NCBI GenBank assembly: GCA_030018415.1
Contig: JASEGC010000001.1
Coordinates: forward strand, 535,033-599,032
Length of the DNA stretch: 64,000 nucleotides
Origin: Candidatus Aenigmatarchaeota archaeon
GTDB lineage: Archaea > Aenigmatarchaeota > Aenigmatarchaeia > CG10238-14
Direction of reading: 5' to 3'
Shown: piece by piece, positions 12,340 through 56,688 of the stretch
How positions within the stretch are numbered: position 1 is the stretch's first letter
How the letters are laid out: each line of letters opens with the position of its first letter
The notes under the pieces: model-generated
What the model saw: the letters and a program-made list of their open reading frames with translations, nothing else
The model's database searches: none
What the model was told of the DNA's origin: nothing
Made by a program: the position numbers and the translations under genes

Positions 12340-13162
12340 TTATAATTTAATTAATTTCTTCATCCTTTCTAAGAATTCTTCTGCGGTGTTTACAAGATAG
12401 GTGGCTGTATCGAGCGAGTATATGTATCTGTAATCTACATCTTCTCTAGATGAGGTAGCAGCTCTAAAATCGTTGATATATTTTGACTCCAACTTTCCAT
12501 CTCTACTCAATCTTTCTAAAATAATTCCAATTACAAAATATCTTCTTTCTTTAAACCTCATGGAAAATAAGACTGCTCTTGCAGCACGAAACATTGAATA
12601 GTATGCTTTAATTATACACCATTTAGTATCATCCTGTTTTAATGCAACCCTAGCTCTATCTAAATCATATTTTGCTTTTTATAATTTTTTGTCGACCAAT
12701 TTTTTATCGATTTTTACCTTTGTAATATATCCTTTTTCTACTAAATCTTCTACTCTCATACCAATCGGGTCTTTTCTGGCCATAGAACTCCATTCTAATT
12801 CTGTGTATATACTTGGTTTAATCCTTCTCCCGATTTTTTGTTCAATGTTTCTGATAACATCGAAGATGCCTTTCTCTTGTCTTCCTACCGTAAAGGAAGA
12901 TTTGTACATTTTTTATGTCTTTGAGATGAGGTAGTAGTTTAACGATGTTGAACAAAATTTTTAATTGTCTCGTCACAGCAAATTCTAGGTCTACTTTGTA
13001 TATTTTCATCCTACCTTTAGTTGTTTGAATGAGTAAGTTAAGGCTTGACAATATTTTTAGCCATTTATTGACAGTTGCTCTTGCCAGTTTTGTCTTTTTC
13101 CTTACTCCAGTTTCACTAAACTCTTGTTTAGGGTTTTCTAAGAAGAAATTTAAAATTTTCAT
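12340..13162 (-). pseudogene. Degraded wHTH-nucleotidyltransferase-HEPN gene (MNT/HEPN-type module)
   Basis: Three consecutive ORF pieces are present. 13162-12842 encodes a wHTH plus ..VQIFLYG. A frameshift leads to 12909-12679. An in-frame TAA at 12679-12681 is followed, in the same frame, by KAKYDLDRARVALKQDDTKWCIIKAYYSMFRAARAVLF..., a HEPN-like helix pair continuing to 12340. Confidence 0.45.
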
Positions 13163-13380
13163 CGGAGCTTCTTTATCTAGGATTTCATTCAGTTACATTA
13201 ATAAAAGCAATTTTATCGTTTTGGAATTTTTATCGTTCATCAAAATGTTTATATAGTGAAAAAAAACCAAAATTAGTTACATGAATATGGATTTCTTTAA
13301 TGAAGAAAAAAATTTTCTTCCAGAGATAAGCTTATGTATAAGCTTTTTGAAAGTATTAACATGGTTTTGGTGGTTACTCG

Positions 13381-16300
13381 ATGAAATTTATCCTGAATAG
13401 AAAGAGTTTAATGTTGTTTTCATTATTCTTGCTAGGGTTTTTTGTTGTCAATTTTGTTTTGCCAGTATTTGCAGAAATGTTTCCAGGAGCGGGACCATAT
13501 AGCAATGAGACCGGGAGTTTAATGCCAGTTTGGGTTAATACATCTGGGGCAGACGGAAAAATTGACATGTTCTTTGCAAACGGTAATACGGTTTATATCG
13601 TAGCTAATATTTCTTGTTCCCTTCCAGCTGTTTGTAATCAGAGTATAATTGCAGATGCTAACTTTACTGAGATAGGCATACTGGAATCGGGTGGGTTTAG
13701 ACAAGGTGTATACAAAACAAACGCTACTGACGGTAGTTGGGTTCTCTTTGAATTTAACGGGACAATTAATCTTACAAATATACAGATGATTCAGGTTAAG
13801 ATGGTTTATGTAAATGCAACTGCTGCTTATAATACAAGTGAAAATATTACACAAGGTCTCTTGGCTCCTGTTCTAGTAGTCAACATGTCAACATTCGGTT
13901 GCCCTCCAGCTGATGACCCGAATGTTCAATTCCCTGTTGTTCCGGGATGGAATATATCAAATCCTAGTCAGCCTGTTTTACCACCTGGCATACAAGCTCA
14001 GGGTTGTACTCAAAATACAACTTTATGTGCTAATATGGATACATTTGGACCAGGAACATGGGATGATGTTGCTAATCAATGGAAAGTCTGTGTACCAGAT
14101 TTTAGCAATAGTGCAACCACAAATCTAACTGCAATTGCTGACACTGGTGATTTCTCTAATATTTCGAGCTTTACTATAGAAGTTCCTGGAAAAGCTAAGA
14201 TTGTTTTCAACACAAACGTCAGTTTTGCCTCACGAACAGAATCTCAGGCAATAATGGAGTTTGCCATGAAATCTCTGATGACTGGTGGTAAAATAGGGAT
14301 GAACGATTCGGAATGGAATGGTGAGGGTGGTAGACCTAATCTAAATCGATCAGCCACACTCACGATTTACAATATTTCACAATATTTTCCAATAAATGGA
14401 AGACCACAAATTTTCAGGTACCCAACACACAGATCAACAATTGGTGGAGAAATATGTCCTGCAAATATATGTTCAGGTTTTCTTTGGGACGGAGAAAACA
14501 TCACTTTCACTGTTTTCAGTTTCTCTGACTATGGATTAGCAGATGCGATAAATGTAACTTTACAAAGTCCTGAGAATTTTACTTATGTTAATATAAGAAA
14601 TGTGAACTTTACTTACATTCCTGAGTGGGACGCTTCTGTAACTATGAAAAACTGTACTTTGTATGGAAATTTCACTGGTACATGGGCAGCTAACGCGACA
14701 AATCAGAGTGCTTTGGTTAATGGAACTGTTAATGGAATAAACAATACTGTTTCTTCTGATGGACCTTACCTATGGAATGTTTACTGTTATAATGAAACTG
14801 ACCAGTATGATTACTATTCACTCAACTGGACTGTAACTGTGGATACTGTCGAACCACAATGGTCAAATAATCAAACGGATATAGTAACAACTTATTCTCC
14901 ATCTACACTTTCTTACTTTAACATTTCATGGACAGATAGTAATGGTATATCTAAAGTTTTTATAGAAGGCAATTGGTCTGGCCCGCAAAACTATTCAATG
15001 TTCAATCTTGCAGGAGATGTCTATAGTTTTAACGTTACTTTACCCGCTGGAACATTCTATTGGAAATCTTACTCAAACGATTCTGCAAATAATTGGAATG
15101 TATCAGATACTTGGTATTTCACTATAAATAAAGCTCCAAACCCAGTAGATCTTTATTTCAATGGAACAAAAAACAGTAACAGAACTTACACATACCCAGA
15201 AGTAAGCAATGTCACTGGTACTACTTCAGTTGGAACAGCCTATCTGTATAGAGATTCCTCAAGCGTAACGAACCCAGAAATAATCACGTTGGGTAATGCT
15301 ACACATGCATATAAAGTAAACTCTACTGGAGATCAAAACTATACAGACAACTCAACTGGCTTAACTTATTATATTCTAGTAAACAAAGGGACTCCAGATG
15401 TAAAGACATTCATAGATGATTCTGCCTCCAACAAAACAGTAACTTATCCTACTACTGTGACAGTAAAAGGAAATTCTACTACAACAATAACTCCTCCAAC
15501 GTTTAACTTGTACATTTCATCTCTTAATTCTTCAGGGAATCCAGCAACGATAACAACTGAGCAGGGAGCAGGAACTTATGCAGTAATCTACAATACTTCA
15601 GGAAATGCAAATTGGACTACTGCAACTAACTCAACTTTATATTTAATCGTATCTCAAAATTCTACAAATCCTGTCGATCTCTATCTAAATAATCAACTCA
15701 ATACAAATGTTACAATCACTTACGGTATTCAATCTAACGCAACTGGAGTAGCTTTGTATGCTAATTCCGGAACTTTGTATCTGTATAGAGATGAAGTGGA
15801 TGTAACCTCAACCGAAAATGATCAATTAATAACATTGGCAGCAAAGCCAACTGGTTATGCTTACAAAGTAAATATAACAGGAAATGTCAACTATACCTCA
15901 AACAGTTCTGGTCTGACGTACTACCTATTCATTAATAAAGCTCCAACAGAGATAGCCCTCTCCTTAAACGGAACTAGAGGAAATAACTCTTATCAAGTCG
16001 GTCAAGTCGCTAATTTCACAGTTACTCTCAATGTTTCTGGAAAGTATGTTAACTTAACTACAAACATCTCTGGCTGGGTTGATCAAACTAACGTGACGCC
16101 ACTGATGAACTACACAACATTATCAACAGCAGGGACTTATAACATCACAGGCTATTGGCTTGGTGATGCGAACTATTCTTTCGATTCAGAAACTTGGTAC
16201 GCAACTGTAGTTACAACAACTACTACGACAACCACAACTATTACAATTCCATCAGGCGGTGGACGTGCACCAAGACCTCCTCAAGCATCTCGTATCTGGT

Positions 16301-46137: not shown

Positions 46138-47109
46138 ATGTATAACACAGTGATAGTAGGAGGAACTTTTGATAGATTTCATGTTGGACATGAAGCTTTC
46201 TTGGATAAAGCTTTCCAATCTGCTAAAAAAGTACTGATAGGCTTGACGACTCATTCTATGTTAAAAAAGATAGTATTCCAAAACTCTATCTGGCCATACG
46301 AAAGAAGAAAAAAAGCTGTAGAAGATTTTGTAAAAAAATATGGAAAGGAATTCGTGATTTTTTCTATTGAAGACATATTTGGACCTTCTATTGAGATAGA
46401 AGATTTGGATGCTATAGTCGCGACAGAAGAAACTAGGCAAACTTGTGAAAGAATTAATCAAATAAGAAAAAGAAAGGGATTAAAACCTTTAGAAATAATC
46501 CACGTTCCTTACGTTTATTCAGAAGATTGTAGAGTTATTTCTTCATCTAGAATAAGGAAGGAGGAGATAGATAGAGAAGGAAGAGTGCTCGTCGATTACT
46601 TAATTACTGAAAGACTAAAGGAAGAGTTGAGGAGGCCATCTGGCAAAATCTTCGAGGGAGATAACGTTACCGTAACGAAAGATTTGATATCTTACATCCA
46701 AGAAGAGGGTTTTAAAGACGTTGTCTGTATTGGGGATGAAGTAGTTCATGATTTGTTGAGTCTAGGCTTTAAACCAAAGAACATTATCGTTGATGGAAAA
46801 GTAATGAGAAAGCCGATAGATTACTTGGGTGATATACTCAAGCCTTACGCAAAAAAATTCAAGTTGAAGAACCCAGCAGGCTTTATATCAAGGCATGCAT
46901 GGAAAACTATAAAAGAAGCTTTGGAAAAAGAGAGTGCAGTACTCGTGAAGGGCGAAGAAGATCTTCTAACTATCCCAACTCTTCTACTCGCAAAAAACAA
47001 CATAGCAATAATCTATGGTCAGCCTGGTAGAGGCAAAGTAATAATAAAAGTAGATGATGAAAAGAAAGAAAATTGGAGAAAAAGATTAGCAGAATTCGAA
47101 ACTGCTTAA
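46138..47109 (+). CDS. Fusion of archaeal phosphopantetheine adenylyltransferase (N) and GTP-dependent dephospho-CoA kinase, DUF359 type (C)
   Basis: 323 aa. The N-terminal half has VIVGGTFDRFHVGHEAFL...ISSSRIR, the cytidylyltransferase/PPAT signature. The C-terminal half has VVCIGDEV...IIVDGK..R......NPAG.I.......VKGEEDLLTIP......IIYGQPGRGKV, the DUF359 signature. Confidence 0.8.
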   Translation: MYNTVIVGGTFDRFHVGHEAFLDKAFQSAKKVLIGLTTHSMLKKIVFQNSIWPYERRKKAVEDFVKKYGKEFVIFSIEDIFGPSIEIEDLDAIVATEETRQTCERINQIRKRKGLKPLEIIHVPYVYSEDCRVISSSRIRKEEIDREGRVLVDYLITERLKEELRRPSGKIFEGDNVTVTKDLISYIQEEGFKDVVCIGDEVVHDLLSLGFKPKNIIVDGKVMRKPIDYLGDILKPYAKKFKLKNPAGFISRHAWKTIKEALEKESAVLVKGEEDLLTIPTLLLAKNNIAIIYGQPGRGKVIIKVDDEKKENWRKRLAEFETA

Positions 47110-47495
47110 AATTTTATCTAGAAAAACAAATTATTCATTGAAAGACAATGAAAAAATCAATTACTCCAGTTTTTTATATCTTTCCTTTTATTAATTTCAA
47201 TTTCTTTAGCTCTATCTTTTAAAGAAATTCCTTCGGGTATTGTTTCTAGCTTCTTCAATACTCTTATAAGAAGTTTATGGACATCCTTCGGTTACTGTTT
47301 ATCCAACAACTTGTGATTCTCGATGTAAATCACAAAGATATACTTCTGGGAGTTGTAGAGCAGGAACTTCTCTTATTGGGATGGAAGGAGCAAATATGCC
47401 AGCAAATCAACTCATTTCAGGATCTTCTACATATCCTATAGCTTATTGGTTATATCCAGGAACAGGTTATGCCTGGAAAAAATTGAATTTAAAAA

Positions 47496-47918
47496 CTATT
47501 CTCCTATAACTGTCACGGTAACTTCTCTTCTTCTTGGCTCTAACAGCTCTAGTAAAAATACTTGTTGCCATGTCCCCAAAAAAAGTCTTCCATCTTTTAC
47601 TGGTATCGCTAAGTTAGAGTTTCCAAGCAACTGATTTTTTATATGGCTTGCTGCGTTAATAACTCCTTCATAATTGTGCCGATACTTTCTGTTCAAAGGA
47701 ACCAATTCTTCTATGATCTCTTTCGTGTCTTCATGTATGCTTGAGTCATCTTCTTGTAGGATAACTGTTGCAGTGTTGTGTGCTGCGTTGACGAAAACGA
47801 TGCCATCTTTGATCTTAGATTTATTCACTATATCTTGCACTCTATCAGTGATGTTTATGTACTGAAAGTTCTTCTGTGTTTTTAACTCTATACTGTCTCG
47901 ATAGAATTTCATCTGCAC
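47496..47918 (-). CDS. yjbQ: YjbQ/UPF0047 family protein (secondary thiamine-phosphate synthase family)
   Basis: 140 aa with AHNTATVILQEDD....D........P....YRHNYEG..NAASHIKNQLLGNS..IPV.DGRL.LGTWQQVFLLE....RRR.V.V. Confidence 0.8.
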   Translation of the reverse strand: MQMKFYRDSIELKTQKNFQYINITDRVQDIVNKSKIKDGIVFVNAAHNTATVILQEDDSSIHEDTKEIIEELVPLNRKYRHNYEGVINAASHIKNQLLGNSNLAIPVKDGRLFLGTWQQVFLLELLEPRRREVTVTVIGE

Positions 47919-48190
47919 TCACTCAAAACTTTTTCTATAGCTTTTTTAAGGAAGAGTTGCTGAGTCAAGCCTATAAACCTCTCCCTTTCTTTACCATCAC
48001 ACTCGATGATTATAGTGGGCAATTCTCTGATCTTGTACTTGGATACTTGTCCTTCGTTTTCCTTCGCGTACAAATATTCGAATTCGACCCTCCCCCTGAA
48101 CCTGTTCTCCAATTCTTTCACTAACGAGGTCTGAAGATCAGATGTCCCAGAATTTTCCTCTAAAAAATTCTTAACGAGCACTCTTGGCAT
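47909..48190 (-). CDS. Small thioredoxin-fold-like protein without CxxC (tentative)
   Basis: 93 aa. The length and the ..LPTIII......ERFIG.. pattern resemble a thioredoxin-like fold, but there is no redox motif. Confidence 0.3.
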   Translation of the reverse strand: MPRVLVKNFLEENSGTSDLQTSLVKELENRFRGRVEFEYLYAKENEGQVSKYKIRELPTIIIECDGKERERFIGLTQQLFLKKAIEKVLSECR

Positions 48191-48272
48191 CTTATCACTT
48201 AATTATTTGTACACCAAATTTAAAAATTCAGATTCTGTAAAACTTATATTGCGAGTCTTTAAATTAATAATC

Positions 48273-49055
48273 ATGGTAACAGAAGAAATTCCTCTAAAAG
48301 AAGAGCATTCGTCCATCAAGGAGTTTACAGCGACTGACCAAACCTTTAAAGAGATCATGGAAAAGTCTGTTGGGCCAGAAATTAAAAAAATAGACAGAGT
48401 CCCATCTGGTATTCCTGGATTGGATGAGCTGATAGAAGGGGGTTTTGTTCAGAATTCCGTCATCATGGTTGCTGGAGAGTCAGGGACTGGAAAGACCATC
48501 TTTTGTACTCAATTCATCTGGAATGCTCTATGCATAGGTGATAACGGTGTTTATGTTACATTACAACAAACTGCTGATGAAGTAAGAGACGATGTTGCCA
48601 TGTTTGGTCGTGACTTCAGGAGAGCAGAAGAACTCAACCAATGCAGGATCATTTTTATCGAGCCGCAAGACATCAAAAAAATCATACAAATAATCCTGAA
48701 GAATGTCAAAGAAATTAAGGCTAAAAGATTGGCAATAGATTCTATTTCAATGATATGTGAGTATGCTGAAAAGCGTAGAGATATAAGGTACAATCTAGGT
48801 TATCTGCTCAGGCAACTCAAAAAAATGGGTGTAACTACAGTAATATCTTCTGAAGTCGAAGAGGGCTCGAACTTGTTAAGCAGGTATGGCATCGAAGAAT
48901 TCCTTGTTGATGGTGTTATCGTTCTGAAATGCGGAGTGGACGTGGTTGGCGGAAAACCCAGAAGCTTGTATATCAAGAAGATGAGGAGAACTAAGCACGA
49001 TTTAAATACTCATCCTTTTGAGATAACGGAAAGAGGCATAAGGATTATTGAATAG
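48273..49055 (+). CDS. KaiC/RadA-like single-domain RecA-superfamily ATPase
   Basis: The segment VPSGIPGLDELIEGGFVQNSVIMVAGESGTGKTIFCTQF provides Walker A, and RLAIDSIS provides Walker B. I chose the ATG at 48273; the ORF track begins at an upstream TTG at 48207. Confidence 0.8.
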   Translation: MVTEEIPLKEEHSSIKEFTATDQTFKEIMEKSVGPEIKKIDRVPSGIPGLDELIEGGFVQNSVIMVAGESGTGKTIFCTQFIWNALCIGDNGVYVTLQQTADEVRDDVAMFGRDFRRAEELNQCRIIFIEPQDIKKIIQIILKNVKEIKAKRLAIDSISMICEYAEKRRDIRYNLGYLLRQLKKMGVTTVISSEVEEGSNLLSRYGIEEFLVDGVIVLKCGVDVVGGKPRSLYIKKMRRTKHDLNTHPFEITERGIRIIE

Positions 49056-49554
49056 TCTTTATCTCGAAAGTGCAGACTTTGTTGCCCATAGCGATACAAC
49101 TCGTTTCTTTAGCTTCAACCTTTTTCCCGCTAGTCTTTTCGATGAAGTTCTTGAACATACCAACGATGATATGACAGACTGGTTCTTTCTGCATCCCATA
49201 CTTCTCCGCGTATAGCTTGGCGAAATTATTCTTCCCTATCTTCAAGATTGTTTTATCTTTTGTTATATCCACGACTTCAACTTTACCGAAGCCGCTCATG
49301 TCGAACAAGTTAGTCCATAAGTTTGATATCTTTTTCTCTTCTATCGCAAATCTTTTCTTGAAGTGAGAGATTATGGATTCTGAGATAAGATAACCGAGTC
49401 TTTCCATCAATTTTTTATCTGTTATTTCCTTCTGGAATTCTACTAAGCTTGGTAAAGGTTGCATGCTGAAGTTCAAGTCGAATATGTCTATTCCTTCCTC
49501 AGTGAAAGAGGCTTGTCTAGTAGTTAGAAGCTTTGATAAGAATGCAGAGATCAT
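49045..49554 (-). CDS. V4R (4-vinyl reductase) domain protein
   Basis: 169 aa. The C-terminal pattern EPVCHIIVGMFKNFIEKTSGKKVEAKETSCIAMGNKVCTFEI is the C...G..G......E..C...G...C.F signature of V4R. Confidence 0.65.
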   Translation of the reverse strand: MISAFLSKLLTTRQASFTEEGIDIFDLNFSMQPLPSLVEFQKEITDKKLMERLGYLISESIISHFKKRFAIEEKKISNLWTNLFDMSGFGKVEVVDITKDKTILKIGKNNFAKLYAEKYGMQKEPVCHIIVGMFKNFIEKTSGKKVEAKETSCIAMGNKVCTFEIKTIQ

Positions 49555-50030
49555 TCTGATACCAGACCTCTTATCTTCGTTAATTTAGTCCATTTTTCAT
49601 AGGTTAATGGTTCTTCTTTTTCTGAGTTGACTTCGATTAAATTCTTGAGAATCATCTTGACTTTTTCTTCTTTTACAGTTTCATCTATGACTTTTTCTAA
49701 TGCTCTGGCGAAAGCTTTGGCTCTATCTAACTCGATGAAATGACCTATTAATGCTGCTGGCGGTTGATACATGATCTCCAGAAAACCACCTTTTGGGAAT
49801 AAAAATCTTTTGTAGAATTTTTCACCTATTATGTCTTCACCGATAAAACTGAATTCTTCTTTGAACTGCTTTTCAAGTCTTGTTACAAATTTAAACAGTT
49901 CTTCTTCTGATTTTTTTGATACATGATCAAGCTCTTTTAATTCTCCTGGTTTGGTCTTGGTTAATTTAAATTCGAACGGCAATGCTTCAGGTAAATCGAT
50001 TAGGACTACATACGTGTGTTTAGATTTCAA
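49551..50030 (-). CDS. Hypothetical protein, coupled to the V4R gene
   Basis: 159 aa with a 4-nt overlap with the V4R gene and no recognisable motif. Confidence 0.4.
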   Translation of the reverse strand: MKSKHTYVVLIDLPEALPFEFKLTKTKPGELKELDHVSKKSEEELFKFVTRLEKQFKEEFSFIGEDIIGEKFYKRFLFPKGGFLEIMYQPPAALIGHFIELDRAKAFARALEKVIDETVKEEKVKMILKNLIEVNSEKEEPLTYEKWTKLTKIRGLVSE

Positions 50031-50093
50031 GTTAACACCTAAAGAAATAATAGTTTTCTTAATATTTCAATTTACTGAAAATATGATATGGTA

Positions 50094-51530
50094 TTATCTC
50101 TCAATGGAGACCCATCTTGTAATCAAATCTCTAAGGCCATATGATCCATCGTGAGGTATACCAACCCCAGGAACACCCATTTTACCTACTTGTCTTATAT
50201 TTGTAGCTCCTATTCTTCCCATTTCATCCGAAAACCTCAGCAGTCTATCTTCATACAATGCCACACCTATAGTTTGTAAGTACTCTGCAATTGGCATCAC
50301 CAACCCTCTTACTTCACTAACATCATCAACCGGTTTAACTCTAACAAATCTATAAGAACACGAAGGTTCAAACTCCTCCTTTTCATCGTAAATTACTGTC
50401 CAGTCTGTACTTCTCTGAGAGCAAAATATTTTAACATTATCTTTAAATTCATACGTGCCTCTAAGTTGTTGGATTTCAGAAGATTTACCAACATTTATTT
50501 TTCCTCTTGGCAATTTCTGGTTAACTTTTTCCATTTCTTCTGCTAAAAACTCTGCAAACTTTTCTGGACTTATATTGCCATTTTTTTCTACATACCAAAG
50601 CTGAGGAGATAAACAGCCTTGTTGATCGTATAATGATGTATCGAGAGCTGCCAATTCTGCAACCTCTCTTGCTGTTGATTCATCAATTAAATACTCTTTT
50701 CCAATCACACCAAAACTCATTTTATGACCATAAGGAATAAGTTTGGTTTTGTGTGGTATCCTTTTTTTAATACTCTCTATTGTTTTCACGCCACCATAGG
50801 CGACGACTACATCCGCTTCAGCGAAAGCTACATTTTCTACGGATTCATCGCCCCCCTTCCAATAAGTAAGAGCAATAGAATTTGCTATTTCCTCATCTAC
50901 ATCTCTTATGGATTTGACGAATAGATTTGCAAAATATGGCTCTTCTGATGCGACTTTTCCTAACTGAGCCGATTTAACTAACAGGCCCCTAGTTAAACTG
51001 ACAATAGGCAAAGCTGGCACATTTCCTGAAAATATATTTACTATAAATTCAGGGCCATATGCTCTAACTAAGTAATCACAACCCCTTTTTGGTATAAATT
51101 CATCGAGACATTTTGGATCGTTATCCAATTCAGCCCATAGCATTCGAGTTAAGTTACTTTTATTATCTTTACGTTTAAACATCTCAAGAACACCATTAAT
51201 ACTAACTTCTATCATTTGTGGAGAAAATCGAGTTATTTTCGGTAATACAGCTAAAGCCTTTTTCCTTAACTCATAATTTCTATCTTCCCAATTCGATCCA
51301 ACTTGGTCTAGAACTTCAACAATTTCACCTACAGATCTTTTCGATAAATTTTGTTTTCTTGATTCCTTTACAGAAATAATTACTTTCTTTAAAACTTCTG
51401 GTGTCATTATGGGAACTCTTACTGATACTTCTTCTTTGTCTCCATAAACCACTTCTTCGTATTTAACTTCTGATTCAGAAATACCGGGTAGAAAAAAAGC
51501 ATCAAAAGTATATTTTAGCGTAGATACCAT
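50094..51530 (-). CDS. LuxC-like acyl-CoA/acyl-protein reductase family protein
   Basis: 478 aa. The segments NIFSGNVPALPIVSLTRGLLVKSAQLGKVASEEP......ALTYWKGGDE ... YGHKMSFGVI ... DQQGCLSPQ match the LuxC (ALDH-like) family pattern. Confidence 0.75.
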   Translation of the reverse strand: MVSTLKYTFDAFFLPGISESEVKYEEVVYGDKEEVSVRVPIMTPEVLKKVIISVKESRKQNLSKRSVGEIVEVLDQVGSNWEDRNYELRKKALAVLPKITRFSPQMIEVSINGVLEMFKRKDNKSNLTRMLWAELDNDPKCLDEFIPKRGCDYLVRAYGPEFIVNIFSGNVPALPIVSLTRGLLVKSAQLGKVASEEPYFANLFVKSIRDVDEEIANSIALTYWKGGDESVENVAFAEADVVVAYGGVKTIESIKKRIPHKTKLIPYGHKMSFGVIGKEYLIDESTAREVAELAALDTSLYDQQGCLSPQLWYVEKNGNISPEKFAEFLAEEMEKVNQKLPRGKINVGKSSEIQQLRGTYEFKDNVKIFCSQRSTDWTVIYDEKEEFEPSCSYRFVRVKPVDDVSEVRGLVMPIAEYLQTIGVALYEDRLLRFSDEMGRIGATNIRQVGKMGVPGVGIPHDGSYGLRDLITRWVSIER

Positions 51531-51536
51531 TTTTAT

Positions 51537-52694
51537 CTACTTCTGTACAATCACAAATTCATTGTAATCTAAGGAGCAGCCACGAGGTTCACCACCCTTA
51601 ACTCTTCCGATAATCTCAAAACCACTACCTACTTCGTAGCCTAAATCATCTGTTTGCACTGCCATCACGCTACTTCTGTTCGCTAGATCATAATGTCTCA
51701 AAAGTCCAATTTTTCCTTTTGGTAATCTTTCTAGAGTCTCAGGGTCTACTGCTATTGTTCGTGTCCATGGATGATTTGGTTTGTATCTGAGTTCTGATTT
51801 ACCTTCAAGGCTATTTAGTAAAGTATTATCGAAAAATTGTGTTGCGTTTTCTGTTAGGCCCAATAAATTAACACAATATGCCTCATGAATTCCAGTTGTT
51901 TCTTTCAAACTAGAATACAATTCCTCTTTCGTTAATTCTCTTGATTTGCCTTTGTATCCTCCACCATCAAGTGACCTACTACCTTTGGGGAGATTAAACT
52001 TCAAACCAATATTTTTACACTGATCGAGAAAGTGTACGCAACCAAAAGAAGAACTTACGATAGCTACTGGTTCACCTGTTTTTTCAGATTCTTTAAGTAG
52101 TTCAACAAACCGTCTACCATTTACATCTATACCACGTTCGCCAACTCTTGCTAGATATTCACTATTTTCGGTTCCAAAATTCTCGACCCACTCACCTATT
52201 CCTACTGCCATAGACATATCGTAAGGCATCGTTTCGGGTGGCGGTGAAAGAGCAAGAATTTTCATTTTATCAACATCAGGAAAGAAATAATGTTTAGCTG
52301 TTACATAAACACTTCTGCGCCAAAAATGCATACCAACCGCATCAATATAATGTAACCCTCTCTTCCCAGGGTTTTTAGTCCCACTAGTCATAAATTTTCT
52401 TTCAGCCCTTTCAACTGGAAAACATGTCAAGGGAATATCTTTAAATACATCAGCTACTACTCCAGGGATTTCTTCCCACGAAGTAATATTATCAGGGTTT
52501 ATACCTTTCCTTTGAATGTATTTTTGTAGAGGTTTATTAGCACTATATTGAAATTGGAACAATCTTATGGCCATGTCATTAAATTCAGATTCACTTACAC
52601 CTCTTTCATAACCATGTTCAATTGCTTCAAGAATATCTTCATCTAATTTTCTTATAAATTCAGAATCAATACCACTCATTTCATACACCTCCAT
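51537..52694 (-). CDS. LuxE-like acyl-protein synthetase (adenylate-forming) family protein
   Basis: 385 aa. The segments LFQFQYSANKPLQKYIQ......I.SWEEIPGV.ADVFKD....F.TSGT are typical of the LuxE family. Confidence 0.72.
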   Translation of the reverse strand: MEVYEMSGIDSEFIRKLDEDILEAIEHGYERGVSESEFNDMAIRLFQFQYSANKPLQKYIQRKGINPDNITSWEEIPGVVADVFKDIPLTCFPVERAERKFMTSGTKNPGKRGLHYIDAVGMHFWRRSVYVTAKHYFFPDVDKMKILALSPPPETMPYDMSMAVGIGEWVENFGTENSEYLARVGERGIDVNGRRFVELLKESEKTGEPVAIVSSSFGCVHFLDQCKNIGLKFNLPKGSRSLDGGGYKGKSRELTKEELYSSLKETTGIHEAYCVNLLGLTENATQFFDNTLLNSLEGKSELRYKPNHPWTRTIAVDPETLERLPKGKIGLLRHYDLANRSSVMAVQTDDLGYEVGSGFEIIGRVKGGEPRGCSLDYNEFVIVQK

Positions 52695-52696
52695 AA

Positions 52697-54085
52697 TTAT
52701 TCAGTAACTAATTTATCAGTTATCACTCCTACCGATACTGTGGTCGAATTCGCCATCGGTCCCGATTTTCTGTCAAAGGTAAACTCTCCCATCGACCCAA
52801 AACCTATTATTTGTGTATCTGGATATTTTTTCTTTATCGATTCAATAATTTTTTCTAATTTTTCTTCACCTAATGAAAATATTTTTCTCAACGAACAATC
52901 AAAAATAAATAGAATTTTCGGATCAGCAGTAGCATCATTTTTTGCTCCAATAATGGCATTCTCCTCAGCTTCTACTACTTTTTTAGGATCAATTTCTAGT
53001 TTATTCAATACCATATTTTCAGGAACCTTTTCGACAAATAACAAATTTTTACCTCCTCCTACTCTTAATGGTAATCTGATCGCTATATTACCATGGATGT
53101 CAAAAATTCCAAAGGGATTTGTAGTTACAATACTTAAGAATGGAATTGCTTTGGGGTCCATCTTACCAGAAAAAAATTTAGTTGCCAACTTTGCAAATGG
53201 AGCCATTTTCATCATGATGTCTTCCTTAGGAGTCCATAGTTCATCAACTTTCATCTTGAGTATTTTTGCATAAATTTCTACAGCAGGTCTTCCATCAAGT
53301 TCATGAACAACATAATCTTTTGATTTTGTTACAACACACGTTTCATCTGTCAAAGTGTAGCCATGACCAAATTCAAATCCAGTTCTTAAACCTGTGTATA
53401 TTGCCATTGCAATTGCTGCGTCTTTGTAGACTTTCCCATCTGCAAACTCATAGTTTTTAATAAGTCTAGCGTCATCCCCAGCCGTACCTCCTATGATGGG
53501 AGTTTGTTTTCCTATTACTTCACATACTCCTTCAAGTACCCCATCTTCCATACCATTTACGTCCATTACAAGCCCAGGAGAAAATAACAAAATAAAATAT
53601 GAATACATCCTCATTAACTCAGCAGAGGTTTTCCTTTTTTCGGCAATATAACGTAAATAAGGAGTAACAATTTTTTCTCTTCGAAGATTTTTTACAGCTT
53701 GTTGTGCTGCAGTTCTACCTGCTTTCATAGGATCTTTATGAACCTCATTACCTATCCCAATACCAATTTGTAAGTAATCTGATGAAATTACACAAGCCAC
53801 ACAAGAGTTTTCAGTGGCACCATAATTAGAAATTTCTCCACAAGTAGTACATCCAACCCATGGCGTGTCACCAAAAACTAAATGGGCACCATCAACTAAT
53901 TTCTGAACAGTTTTATCATCTTTTCCGTATTTTCCACCGGAGCAAAAAACCAGACCAAATGTAGGGTTTTTACCACCCTGTTTTTTCATTTCTTGCATAG
54001 CCATCTCAACAGCTTCTTTTCCAGCAGTAAAAGCATCATCAGCTTTACTAATCCCAACCCCAGCAAAAATATTCTTTGGCATCAT
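52697..54085 (-). CDS. FIST-domain (FIST_N + FIST_C) sensory protein
   Basis: 462 aa. The FIST layout is present: ..A.EA...A.......NPTFGLVFCSGG ... PIIGGTAGD ... GFGSMGEF. Confidence 0.7.
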   Translation of the reverse strand: MMPKNIFAGVGISKADDAFTAGKEAVEMAMQEMKKQGGKNPTFGLVFCSGGKYGKDDKTVQKLVDGAHLVFGDTPWVGCTTCGEISNYGATENSCVACVISSDYLQIGIGIGNEVHKDPMKAGRTAAQQAVKNLRREKIVTPYLRYIAEKRKTSAELMRMYSYFILLFSPGLVMDVNGMEDGVLEGVCEVIGKQTPIIGGTAGDDARLIKNYEFADGKVYKDAAIAMAIYTGLRTGFEFGHGYTLTDETCVVTKSKDYVVHELDGRPAVEIYAKILKMKVDELWTPKEDIMMKMAPFAKLATKFFSGKMDPKAIPFLSIVTTNPFGIFDIHGNIAIRLPLRVGGGKNLLFVEKVPENMVLNKLEIDPKKVVEAEENAIIGAKNDATADPKILFIFDCSLRKIFSLGEEKLEKIIESIKKKYPDTQIIGFGSMGEFTFDRKSGPMANSTTVSVGVITDKLVTE

Positions 54086-54339
54086 AACCCTCTCACAAAC
54101 TCATGCACAACTCTAAGCCTTTCTATCTCAGCTGGCCAAGCCACAAGAGCACGATCTATCCTCTTGACTCTTATCCTACCTTCCCTAGCCAGCTGGTCGA
54201 AGTGATATTTAACTTTCGTCACGTTAGATATATTCTCCCTATCCCATCCCAACTCTTCTATCACACCACGAACATAAGTCGGCCATTTAGTAGAAATTAT
54301 CTCAAAAATCTTTTCTCTTAACTCATCTCCTCTTAACAC
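54082..54339 (-). CDS. Small winged-helix DNA-binding protein, first gene of the FIST-LuxE-LuxC operon
   Basis: 85 aa. The wHTH-like pattern is IFEIIS.KWPTYVRGVIEELG......NVTKVKYHFDQLAREGRIRVKR. It overlaps the FIST gene by 4 nt. Confidence 0.5.
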   Translation of the reverse strand: MLRGDELREKIFEIISTKWPTYVRGVIEELGWDRENISNVTKVKYHFDQLAREGRIRVKRIDRALVAWPAEIERLRVVHEFVRGL

Positions 54340-54510
54340 TAACCATCACCATTTTGCAATTATTTTTAAAAGTTCAATTTATTCAATGTCTCTTATACTT
54401 ATTATTTAACGCCATTTATAATAAATCTATCGAATATATTTTAAAAACCAGTTGCAAATTTTTTCCTTTGAAAAATATAAATTAAATACCACTAAAATGA
54501 AAGTGTGTTT

Positions 54511-54672
54511 ATGAAATGCCCAAAGTGTAAAGCAAAGATGGAAAAAGTCGAGCATGATATAGATTTTGGAGTATCTGTGGATAGTTTTACTTGCCTTGAT
54601 TGTATGTTGAACATAACTGATGAGAAAAAATTGGATGAAGCAATGCATAAACTCAGAGAAAAACTGCTCTAA
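54511..54672 (+). CDS. Small zinc-ribbon protein
   Basis: My translation is MKCPKCKAKMEKVEHDIDFGVSVDSFTCLDCMLNITDEKKLDEAMHKLREKLL*, with two CxxC pairs. It is below the ORF-track size cut-off. The antisense track ORF 54427-54648 is judged spurious. Confidence 0.45.
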   Translation: MKCPKCKAKMEKVEHDIDFGVSVDSFTCLDCMLNITDEKKLDEAMHKLREKLL

Positions 54673-54683
54673 GAATCAGAGTT

Positions 54684-54806
54684 GTGAGAATCGGAACTGG
54701 TATTGGAATTAGGTTCCCGAATGAATTGGTAGAAAAAATGAACCTGAAATATGGACAAGAAATTGAGATTATTCCACAGAACGATCAATTGCTGATAAAA
54801 AAATAG
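54684..54806 (+). CDS. AbrB/SpoVT (MazE-like) swapped-hairpin domain peptide
   Basis: The GTG-started sequence (V)RIGTGIGIRFPNELVEKMNLKYGQEIEIIPQNDQLLIKK* fits the AbrB/MazE antitoxin-like fold pattern. It may be fused to the upstream zinc ribbon if a 1-nt shift near the A5 run at about 54660 is an error. Confidence 0.4.
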   Translation: MRIGTGIGIRFPNELVEKMNLKYGQEIEIIPQNDQLLIKK

Positions 54807-54908: not shown

Positions 54909-55514
54909 ATGATATTCGGTAAAAAGAAAGAAAAGAAGGAAGATGTTTTTAAAGAGAGTTTTGATATACCAATAGGAATCCCAGAAACAAGAGAAGAATT
55001 CAAGCCACTCGGTGAAGAAACAAGACAGGAATTCAAGTCAATGAGTGAAGAGATTTTACCTTTGCCAATGGAAGAAAAGAAAAAAGTCTCTGAACTAAAA
55101 GAGGGTACAGGTAGGATTGAACTAGAAGAACTCTCTCAAAAAGTTGAAAACGAGCTTGGAAAGATTGACAGAAGAATCAAGAGTCTAGAGAAGAAAGCCG
55201 ATGTGATAACTATTGACAGCCAAGAGATCGTAGATTTGATAAGATTGTACGCTGCCACTAACAACAAATTCCAAGAATTCATCGATGAGATGCACAGGCT
55301 AGAAGGGAGAGGATGGGGAATTGATGAAAACATCGCAGCGTTCTACAAATTCAGGATAGGTAAAGCCCTTTCAAACATAAAGAGACAATCCATAAAAGTA
55401 GAGGGAATGTGTGAGAGAGTTGGTTTCACTCCTTCAAAGATAAGAGAAATACTAGATTCCTCGATAGAAGAATTAGTCGATTCACTGATGAGACAGGGAA
55501 GTAGAAGAAGATAG
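54909..55514 (+). CDS. Hypothetical soluble protein (acidic/K-rich N-terminus, helical C-domain)
   Basis: 201-aa ORF with no recognisable motif. Confidence 0.45.
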   Translation: MIFGKKKEKKEDVFKESFDIPIGIPETREEFKPLGEETRQEFKSMSEEILPLPMEEKKKVSELKEGTGRIELEELSQKVENELGKIDRRIKSLEKKADVITIDSQEIVDLIRLYAATNNKFQEFIDEMHRLEGRGWGIDENIAAFYKFRIGKALSNIKRQSIKVEGMCERVGFTPSKIREILDSSIEELVDSLMRQGSRRR

Positions 55515-55524
55515 TTAGCAAAAA

Positions 55525-56688
55525 TCATCTCTTGAACAGAATTTCGATGACATCGTTATTCTTTAGAGTATAGTCTGCTCCAAGTTTTCTTTTTGTTTTT
55601 GCTTCCAATCCACCAATAAATCTTTCTCCTATCTCTGAATGAATGGAAAAGGCAAACTCCTTTAACGTGGTCCCATTCTTCACTAAGAATGCATCGGGCA
55701 AAACATTTCCTTTTTTATCACTCAGTTTGTTTATGTCAGCAACAGGATACACAACGATATAATCGAGAACAGAGAAAACAGCCTTGTTCAAGCATTCTTG
55801 TACTCCAGCTGAGCCATACTTCTTTATCACTTCATTCTTTATGGTTTCCAAGCCTTTCCTCTGTTCTTCGTCTAATCTAGACTGATCAAGAATCTTGAAA
55901 TCATCTCCAGGTAAATATTCTATCAGTCCTTTCTCAGATGCTTTCTTCAACGCAATCTCAGCCTCCGCACTCGTTGGTATTATGAGCAAATCTTTGTACT
56001 TCTCTTTCAACTTCTCAAAATTTTCCTGCGAAGATTTCAAGTCTATTTTATTTGCCGCAATGACGATTGGTTTCGAGATTCTTCTTATCACATTTGCGAA
56101 TCTCTCCACATTCCCAATAGAACTTTTTTCTAGGGCTAAGCTGATATGCTCTTTTGTTATACCAAGCCCACTCAGATTTTCTGTTAACACCTGAATGAGG
56201 TCAGATTTAGATGAAGTAGAGATTCTCGCAAATTTTTCAATCGCTCTCTTAATAACGCCAGCAAACCAAAGATCTATTTCTTTCTCTAGGAATTCAACAT
56301 CAAAACTGGGGTCATAATTTGTGGTAATCTTACCTTCAGCATCCCTTGTTCCTGAGCAGTCGACGATGTGAATCAAAACAGACGCTTGTCTTAAATCGTC
56401 CAAGAATTTGTTGCCTAAACCTCGACCTTCATGCGCCCCAGGTACAAGACCAGCAACGTCTATGAGCTTTACAGGAATAAACCTTTTCCCATCTTTACAA
56501 ATGCTGTTTTGAGGGTTACATTTTACTCCATACTTCTTGCAAACGCAATCAGTTGTGATATAACCTATTCCAACGTTCGGTTCTATCGTGCAGAATGGTA
56601 TTCCAGTTATTTTGACGTCTATCAACGTTGCAGCCTTGAAGAAACTCGATTTTCCACATGAGGGTTTTCCTACCAAGCCTATCTGCAT
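55525..56688 (-). CDS. Obg-like (YchF/DRG-type) GTP-binding protein with C-terminal TGS domain
   Basis: 387 aa with G1 [10 protein letters not shown]3 DVAGLV, G4 NKID and a C-terminal TGS-like segment ..[13 protein letters not shown]. Confidence 0.85.

Follow-up and report, generated by a model that had tools for sequence, protein, structure and literature searches.

The 64,000-nt stretch of DNA analysed here, called the window (G000:C8:535033-599032), belongs to an archaeal assembly of 1.19 Mb that is 89% complete. It carries an operon of six minus-strand genes, which encode a small winged helix-turn-helix (wHTH) protein, a FIST protein, a LuxE-family acyl-protein synthetase, a LuxC-family reductase, an orphan protein of 159 amino acids (unk159) and a V4R protein, and a KaiC-like gene converges on it from the opposite strand. 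The best explanation, which is given a probability of about 0.55, is that the whole cluster is one functional unit, a locally autoregulated and KaiC-centred sensory-metabolic module of DPANN archaea that is built around aldehyde production. The features of the cluster are as follows.

54082-54339, minus strand: wHTH gene (85 amino acids), first gene of the operon, GTG start.
52697-54085, minus strand: FIST gene (462 amino acids), stand-alone FIST_N + FIST_C, from Pfam.
51537-52694, minus strand: LuxE-family acyl-protein synthetase gene (385 amino acids), from Pfam and alignment to 7XC6_E.
50094-51530, minus strand: LuxC-family acyl-thioester reductase gene (478 amino acids), from Pfam and alignment to 7XC6_A.
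49551-50030, minus strand: unk159 gene (159-amino-acid orphan), no Pfam domain, from its own alignment.
49045-49554, minus strand: V4R gene (169 amino acids), from Pfam V4R.
48207-49055, plus strand: KaiC-like gene, from Pfam KaiC; the ATG at 48273 may be the true start.
50030-53795, no strand: replaceable core of 3.77 kb (LuxC, LuxE and FIST residues ~97-462), from blastn against locus L033.
54354-54372, minus strand: candidate proximal promoter/operator, from sequence; the two closest relatives have exactly this block.
54437-54457, plus strand: distal mirror-image TTGCAA/TATA-like block, kept in the window, L033 and L046.

All seven open reading frames (ORFs) sit at the coordinates given by the first-pass annotation. 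Its 4-nt overlaps at wHTH/FIST and unk159/V4R follow from these coordinates, as do the short gaps at FIST/LuxE (2 nt) and LuxE/LuxC (6 nt), the 63-nt gap between LuxC and unk159 and the 11-nt 3'-3' overlap of the V4R and KaiC-like genes. In the window genome, each component of the cluster is present in a single copy, except KaiC.

The gene neighbourhood was searched from LuxC in 301 sampled genomes of the phylum with wider flanks, and ORFs were classed by iterated profiles. LuxC homologues were found in 19 genomes. In 16 loci, spread over five GTDB families of Aenigmarchaeota (f1, f2, f14, f20 and f28), FIST is encoded directly upstream of the LuxE-LuxC pair. The full order wHTH-FIST-LuxE-LuxC-unk159-V4R with a convergent KaiC gene is found in L033 and L046. 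Family f20 (L027-L030) has FIST-LuxE-LuxC with KaiC directly convergent, and wHTH is upstream in L028-L030. Family f28 (L036/L037) carries two tandem KaiC genes upstream of FIST-LuxE-LuxC. An independent search from unk159, with one genome per prokaryotic species, gave 18 loci, all from DPANN archaea (Aenigmatarchaeota, Micrarchaeota, Woesearchaeota, Nanoarchaeota and unclassified Nanobdellati). unk159 and V4R are adjacent wherever sequence is available, except in the divergent Woesearchaeota locus L063, and FIST lies within a few kb of them wherever the contigs are long enough. The first-pass annotation had made its reading depend on such linkage, and the association with FIST, V4R, the 159-amino-acid protein, the small HTH protein and KaiC does recur in many genomes. 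The same gene order recurs across many genomes, far more than chance would give. The KaiC gene is part of the system and not a mere neighbour, and it stays linked even where it is rearranged (tandem and upstream in L036/L037, convergent elsewhere). The cluster is composed of two sub-modules, wHTH-FIST-enzymes and unk159-V4R, each of which can accompany KaiC without the other, and KaiC looks like a hub for these two separable sub-modules. No description of LuxE/LuxC with FIST or KaiC was found in the searchable literature, although a mention in Makarova 2017 cannot be excluded.

Two loci show that Lux-type sets can be multiplied. In L026 (G025:C38, 1-6846), two consecutive FIST-LuxE(-LuxC) sets of different types stand on one contig, which shows that a single genome can carry several cassettes next to each other. 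In L045 (a contig of GCA_965649265.1, 1-8434), three LuxC/LuxE sets lie within 8 kb, with STAS-domain proteins and small unknown proteins between them, so that Lux-type pairs stand beside signalling-type domains outside the DPANN chassis.

LuxC matches Pfam PF05893 (1.3e-94, 317.8 bits against a cut-off of 21, model positions 3-400 of 401), and LuxE matches PF04443 (2.3e-20, 73.3 bits against a cut-off of 24.9, model positions 17-388 of 391). The family labels of the first-pass annotation are thereby upheld, as the hidden Markov model searches returned these two families and not PaaK or an ordinary aldehyde dehydrogenase (ALDH). The NCBIfam luminescence equivalogs scored far under their cut-offs (NF052251 for LuxC, 147 bits against 750; NF052244 for LuxE, 56.6 bits against 550), and both proteins are therefore best placed, by these scores, as members of the families and not as orthologues of the luminescence proteins. 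The earlier statement that luxA, luxB and luxD are missing holds for the whole 1.19-Mb assembly, in which neither the luciferase family PF00296 nor LuxD (PF02273) was found. Since neither is present in the genome, LuxE and LuxC should serve a purpose other than light.

The catalytic residues were compared with 7XC6, the solved LuxC-LuxE fatty acid reductase complex of Photobacterium phosphoreum, in which Cys296 of LuxC accepts the acyl group, Lys238 and Arg355 of LuxE form the adenylation pair and a flexible C-terminal motif of LuxE, TRxxKGCxLS, carries the thioester on Cys364 (PMC9157457). Conservation of the LuxC cysteine, which the first-pass annotation had proposed as a check, was confirmed: Cys306 in YDQQGC aligns with YDQQAC of 7XC6_A, and a cysteine is present here in 26/26 homologues. 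In LuxE, GGGYK248 aligns with Lys238, Arg364 with the Arg354/355 position and the C-terminal GEPRGC373SLDY with the thioester motif, whose terminal GC cysteine is kept in all 26 LuxE homologues collected. LuxE ends 12 residues past this motif, without an ANL C-terminal lid domain, and so lacks the CoA-binding lid of ordinary acyl-CoA ligases. By alignment, LuxE has every residue required for activating a carboxylic acid as its adenylate and for binding it as a thioester to the enzyme's own C-terminal Cys373, and LuxC has in Cys306 the residue that receives the acyl group, which would then be reduced to an aldehyde with NAD(P)H and without CoA. The predicted relay should run from acid and ATP to acyl-AMP, LuxE-S-acyl, LuxC-S-acyl and finally aldehyde. 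The window LuxC is shorter at its C-terminus than the solved enzyme, which continues for about 29 residues; in P. phosphoreum, these help to form the exit of the 40-Å acyl cleft (PMC9157457). This segment is absent, and therefore a long-chain substrate cannot be assumed.

The pair resembles the P. phosphoreum enzymes in its two Pfam families, the Lys/Arg pair, the cysteine tail, the LuxC cysteine in YDQQxC, the missing CoA-binding lid and the adjacent genes in the order E then C. The similarity is only remote, however, with PDB E-values of 3e-30 and 2.5e-11, and unlike the system of luminous bacteria, the archaeal (DPANN) pair stands without luxA/B/D among FIST, V4R, orphan, ArsR-like and KaiC proteins. 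Carboxylic acid reductases (CAR, A-T-R) likewise convert acid, ATP and NADPH into an aldehyde by way of a thioester bound to the protein. In CAR, a phosphopantetheine arm and a reductase domain of the short-chain dehydrogenase/reductase (SDR) type belong to a single polypeptide, whereas here the acyl group would be handed over by a cysteine tail to a second protein, a reductase of ALDH fold.

Other enzymes can occupy the same slot. In L057 (Micrarchaeota), the slot between FIST and unk159-V4R holds a 400-amino-acid AMP-binding-like enzyme and an ordinary ALDH (PF00171). In L055 (an Aenigmatarchaeota single-cell genome), it holds an ALDH beside a two-subunit 2-oxoacid:ferredoxin oxidoreductase, and in L060, an extra SDR-like protein precedes LuxE-LuxC. 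The common denominator of the slots is a means of making an acyl-thioester together with a thioester reductase of the ALDH superfamily. An ALDH-type reductase is retained in every slot variant, which points to aldehyde formation as the output kept throughout. Archaeal LuxE-LuxC pairs without FIST (L031, L032, L034, L035 and L039) form their own LuxC clade, and L031, L034 and L039 contain either an acyl-CoA synthetase with an iron-dependent alcohol dehydrogenase (Fe-ADH) or an SDR with a hexapeptide acyltransferase and UDP-glucose dehydrogenase. The window pair is of the sensor-linked class.

The comparison with a genus-mate revealed how the chemistry of the cluster is exchanged. The window was compared by blastn with L033, from the same-genus genome G043. 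DNA identity is 76% in the left flank (47489-48224), 77% across KaiC, V4R and unk159 (48396-50029), 80% across the first ~97 FIST codons, wHTH and the promoter (53796-54464) and 75% in the right flank (55233-56684), and no alignment was obtained between 50030 and 53795. One breakpoint lies in the intergenic gap between LuxC and unk159, which is the only long gap of the operon, and the other inside the FIST gene (53796). At the protein level, identities to the window in L033 and L046 are 89% and 85% for wHTH, 43% and 88% for FIST, 27% and 81% for LuxE, 33% and 84% for LuxC, 87% and 86% for unk159, 76% and 79% for V4R, and 57% and 64% for KaiC, respectively. The core genes of L033 are still genuine FIST, LuxE and LuxC genes. 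L033 and L046 share 93% identity in both unk159 and V4R and are each other's nearest relatives by their flanks. Accelerated evolution can be excluded because L046, the flank-nearest relative of L033, shares the window-type core (81-88% identity to the window, against 27-43% for L033). The core of L033 was thus replaced in situ. In the LuxC tree, the three members of the window's genus fall in three different deep clades; the placement of LuxC relative to bacterial sequences, which the first-pass annotation had suggested, showed bacterial sequences nested among archaeal ones. The G+C content is 0.355 in the core and 0.34-0.37 in the flanks, and no compositional trace of recent transfer was seen between them.

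The FIST protein matches FIST_N (7.7e-42, 143.8 bits) and FIST_C (3.8e-16, 59.9 bits), both over the Pfam cut-off, which bears out its label. The NosP equivalog of NCBIfam covers only the N-terminal half with 95 bits against a cut-off of 450, and no solved FIST structure was found by sequence search. Residues 1 to ~95 are part of the conserved flank and the remainder is part of the replaceable core. Identity to L033 drops along the protein, from about 80% over residues 1-60 to 13-47% past residue 150. Experimental precedent for FIST comes only from NosP- and CdpA-type haem/nitric oxide-linked sensors, which act on partner proteins (PMC8846402). The window protein resembles the NosP-NahK type in being a stand-alone FIST_N+FIST_C gene next to a signalling partner, and in the proposed logic by which a ligand-bound FIST modulates that partner (PMC8846402). 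It differs in that no histidine kinase or cyclic di-GMP enzyme is present; its partners are enzymes and a KaiC-like protein.

The KaiC-like protein has a single domain (Pfam PF06745, 9.3e-61, 205.6 bits), in agreement with its first label. It is far from the circadian KaiC equivalog (152.8 against a cut-off of 408) and lacks the duplicated CI-CII architecture. Its Walker A motif (GESGTGKT) and Walker B motif (RLAID) are preserved, and in the structure alignment, Gln120-Gln121 (VTLQ120Q121T) replaces the catalytic Glu-Glu of KaiC CI/CII (VTFEES/FAYEES). The Gln-Gln pair is shared by the three members of the window's genus, whereas the cluster-linked KaiC proteins of other families keep Glu-Glu. 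Because the catalytic glutamates are lost, the KaiC-like protein of this genus probably acts with bound nucleotide as a switch or scaffold and not as an ATPase. A convergent V4R/KaiC overlap of 4-11 nt is found in the window and in seven further loci from different DPANN lineages (L048-L060). An overlap of stop codons by 4-11 nt leaves no space for separate terminators; therefore the transcripts must overlap or share a termination point. Makarova, Galperin and Koonin (2017) are said to have proposed archaeal KaiC-like ATPases as hubs of signal transduction, and their abstract reportedly noted homologues with inactivated ATPase sites. Like those proposed hubs, the window protein is a single-domain KaiC homologue whose linked partners are predicted to supply input and output. 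A second stand-alone KaiC-like gene (G000:C8:519310-519981, 223 amino acids) lies 64 kb away, upstream and outside the window. It has Glu-Gln (SLEQEP) at the catalytic pair and is unlinked to other components of the cluster.

The V4R protein matches Pfam PF02830 (1.1e-12, 48.3 bits against a cut-off of 31), so its label stands as well. Cys127, Glu150, Cys153 and Cys161 align with Cys155, Glu178, Cys181 and Cys189 of MopR (5kbe), which we take to be the Zn ligands of MopR, and also with 5fru (PoxR). Among solved structures, MJ1460 (2osd), a stand-alone V4R protein, is the closest; the window protein shares its small stand-alone format and, in NCBIfam, scores far under the cut-off of the MsvR equivalog. 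It is thus like the phenol-sensing V4R domains of MopR, PoxR and DmpR in having Cys, Glu, Cys and Cys at the four Zn-ligand positions. Unlike in those proteins, no AAA+ or HTH output domains are present, and V4R is translationally coupled to unk159.

unk159 is rare, with only 90 representatives among 1.84 billion proteins. It was found only in DPANN archaea in the scan of one genome per prokaryotic species, and its presence in 12/301 genomes of the phylum is patchy and accessory. It forms 72 clusters with 42-91% identity, none of which has a Pfam domain, and no consistent Pfam family was found across 30 members. H5, D12, E15, K71, Y73, R75, E85, H97 and R154 are invariant, and the C-terminus is not conserved in the alignment. 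The AlphaFold2 model (pLDDT 86) gave no match in the PDB at E<=1e-3; SirA and AdoMetDC-like sandwiches were the best PDB matches, but they were not accepted as the fold, with TMq <=0.42. Rare fusions of unk159 to large proteins contained no informative domains. In Woesearchaeota and Nanoarchaeota metagenome-assembled genomes (L064, 3774-7230; L065, 3-2401), an unk159-like C-terminus is carried by a protein of 710-815 amino acids without a Pfam domain. A second short unk159-like ORF follows the large protein in both loci, and in L064 V4R comes next.

The wHTH label of the first-pass annotation is supported at the level of the fold. A Pfam match to the 85-amino-acid protein was not found, but AlphaFold and Foldseek gave a winged helix of ArsR/SmtB type with a C-terminal dimerisation helix. 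The protein belongs to a conserved family of 55 clusters, and its model (pLDDT 92.7) has the topology a1-a2-a3-b-b-a4. Foldseek matched ArsR, CzrA, CadC, SmtB and NolR at a probability of 1.00 and TMq of 0.53-0.65; the best E-value was 1.9e-3, with no match at E<=1e-3. Weak profile matches of the family were to HTH_5/HTH_20 and PDB 5duk. HTH_5 was touched by 2/21 relatives (E=0.018), which does not amount to membership of the HTH_5/HTH_20 profiles, and metal- or thiol-sensing residues of ArsR/SmtB repressors were not found, the protein having no cysteine.

The wHTH gene is preceded by a TATA-like CTTTTAAAAATA (54372-54361), directly after which comes the palindrome TTGCAA (54359-54354), at a distance of 20 nt from the GTG start. 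A distal block, about 95 nt farther from the gene, consists of TTGCAA (54457-54452) beside a TATA-like A/T run (54448-54437) and faces the divergent genes. Across the three close relatives (window, L033 and L046), the 125 nt that precede the wHTH gene are conserved. The layout recurs in family f20 (L028-L030), where the wHTH proteins are only 44-48% identical: the TATA box is again flanked by TTGCAA, in three copies at -51, -41 and -18. At its genome frequency of 0.39/kb, the probability of at least three TTGCAA in 170 nt is 5e-5. These data make TTGCAA a candidate operator of the ArsR-like protein, which would be sited to block assembly of the pre-initiation complex, and the proximal and distal blocks are probably a divergent promoter pair that shares the operator motif. 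TATA+TTGCAA composites are few across the genome, and the only convincing ones at gene starts are the two at this locus. A wider regulon for the wHTH protein was therefore rejected, and the restriction of such sites to this locus suggests a local autoregulatory loop. Scans for terminators and sigma-70 promoters gave no more than the shuffled expectation, such models not being applicable to archaea, and RNA families were not found in the window with Rfam.

Taken together, the favoured module would work as follows. LuxE and LuxC would turn an acid into an aldehyde by a Lux-type relay. FIST would be a specificity-matched ligand-binding partner for the substrate, the product or the cofactor state, because it is encoded directly upstream of the enzymes and mostly swapped together with them. 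unk159 and the Zn-type V4R protein would form a second ligand-binding unit, and both units would report to the KaiC-like protein. The ArsR-like protein would bind TTGCAA beside the TATA boxes and thereby repress both the operon that encodes it and the divergent promoter. The enzymes and the FIST part of the core would be a replaceable cassette, so that the chemistry changes between lineages on a signalling chassis that is retained, and the constant output would be an aldehyde, or a redox step between thioester and aldehyde. Within this module, ligand binding by FIST and unk159-V4R, signalling via KaiC and autoregulation by the ArsR-like protein are the parts that we infer.

Several observations weigh against this picture. 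Across loci, the identities of FIST, LuxE and LuxC are weakly correlated (rho 0.23-0.44), and several pairs are discordant: L033 and L041 share 57% in LuxE but 26% in LuxC, and L033 and L025 share 73% in FIST and 45% in LuxC. Strict co-inheritance of FIST with LuxE/LuxC was rejected on account of these weak correlations and discordant pairs, and the core is a mosaic. Family f20 is without unk159-V4R, and genome G194 has unk159-V4R-KaiC amid sugar-nucleotide genes and no LuxC. In L040, L057 and L059, the wHTH genes have no TTGCAA in front of them, and the candidate operator is assigned from motif conservation in two lineages. The ligand chemistry of FIST is poorly understood (PMC8846402), and the putative sensor roles of FIST and V4R are taken from family precedent. 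In addition, bacterial LuxC homologues that are 40-44% identical to the window LuxC sit with SDR and transporters.

The last of these points leads to the main rival, an unlikely one in our estimate, which is an ordinary substrate-inducible salvage or catabolic operon. A host or environmental acid (for example, fatty or aromatic) would be converted to an aldehyde for unlinked dehydrogenases or an aminotransferase, and FIST, V4R and wHTH would merely sense the substrate to induce the operon, as V4R does in MopR/XylR-type regulators. Metabolic contexts agree with it, as the closest bacterial LuxE-LuxC pairs stand with transporters and SDR, and FIST-less archaeal pairs stand with acyl-CoA synthetase, Fe-ADH, SDR and sugar-nucleotide enzymes; the sensor-linked and the metabolic LuxC pairs, however, are separate clades. 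One Fe-ADH, one Zn-ADH, one ALDH and one class-III aminotransferase elsewhere in the genome could consume the aldehyde, a check that does not discriminate, but no transporter or downstream enzyme is found in the window cluster or in other sensor-linked loci. V4R domains do bind a substrate-like effector in MopR/PoxR, and species-specific cassettes could reflect different hosts or niches. Against this, four non-enzymatic partners for two enzymes are excessive for simple induction, and the conserved KaiC partner and the invariant orphan protein are left unexplained.

A bolder form of the KaiC-centred module is doubtful and is put forward only tentatively. It would be an undescribed KaiC-based system of chemical sensing or communication, in which a constant chassis (ArsR-like repressor, FIST N-terminus, unk159, V4R and KaiC-like switch) accepts exchangeable chemistry cassettes (the ligand-binding part of FIST, an enzyme that forms a thioester and a reductase of ALDH type), each of which would make a lineage-specific molecule derived from an aldehyde and be matched to it. 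The reading as chemical communication or recognition proper, with the core making such a molecule and the variable part of FIST acting as its matched receptor, is more doubtful still. A hypervariable centre between conserved flanks, with one breakpoint inside the putative receptor gene, recalls the agr pherotype loci of Staphylococcus, in which the synthesis genes and part of the receptor gene vary in the same way between conserved regulatory flanks. This is an analogy only, as there is no homology, peptide signal or exporter here, and the variation lies between species. The three cassette types in one genus, the patchy and accessory distribution (unk159 in 12/301 genomes), the cluster without a downstream pathway and a seemingly local regulon that suggests an autoinduction-like loop would all suit communication. 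The cluster has no export function, however, the comparison was made between species and not between strains of one population, and FIST does not strictly co-vary with the enzymes. If communication were the function, replacement of the cassette would create specificity types comparable to bacterial pherotypes, which would possibly serve symbiont-host or symbiont-symbiont recognition.

Protein-directed chemistry is very improbable. LuxE would adenylate a carboxylate of a partner protein (unk159, or a side chain or the C-terminus of KaiC) and LuxC would reduce it, giving a modification switch. LuxE is by definition an acyl-protein synthetase that works via protein-bound thioesters, and unk159 is rich in invariant polar residues and has no known fold; but the LuxE/LuxC family offers no precedent, the unk159 C-terminus is not conserved and the clusters of family f20 are without unk159. 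An anti-virus defence island or a chance neighbourhood is the least credible of all, as the patchy distribution, the exchanged cassettes and a weak PADLOC match of KaiC to the candidate mad8 (8.4e-6) are set against no PADLOC matches for the other six proteins, no nuclease or other effector domains and a gene order conserved across phyla, which excludes chance.

The favoured sensory-metabolic module is of wider interest because archaeal signal transduction is poorly understood, and more so in the genome-reduced symbionts of DPANN. To our knowledge, proposals of KaiC-like hubs have almost no worked examples. The cluster offers a compact and testable case, with two enzymes of predictable reaction, three candidate ligand-binding proteins, a KaiC-like switch and a repressor with a candidate operator. 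About 6 kb of a 1.2-Mb genome is spent on it, which argues for its importance to the organism. The exchange of the core on a kept chassis is a natural experiment on how specificity is encoded. We know of Lux-type CoA-independent acid reduction only from bioluminescence, and the cluster would extend it to archaea and to a regulatory setting. The core replacement with its mapped breakpoints, the three LuxC clades within one genus, the varied slot enzymes, the TTGCAA operator candidate, the genus-specific Gln-Gln of KaiC and the residue match of V4R are new in this analysis.

Some neighbouring genes were also noted. Between the wHTH gene and a gene for a 201-amino-acid protein, a small two-gene unit lies on the plus strand (54505-54806). 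It encodes a 55-amino-acid zinc-ribbon protein with CxxC...CxxC (54505-54672) and a 40-amino-acid AbrB/MazE-like protein (54684-54806; PF04014, E=5.6e-4, below the cut-off). In L033 and L046, the gap at this place is only ~180-200 nt and leaves no room for both ORFs, and the pair therefore looks like a window-specific insertion. The 201-amino-acid protein (54909-55514, plus strand) has no family and is a conserved divergent neighbour in L033 and L046 (46% identity). Its gene may be co-regulated with the operon, as the distal TATA+TTGCAA block faces it. On the other side, a neighbouring gene on the plus strand (46138-47109) encodes a 323-amino-acid protein with CTP_transf_like and DUF359 domains, both of which are also present in its L046 counterpart (12729-13709), and these domains agree with a PPAT-DPCK fusion.

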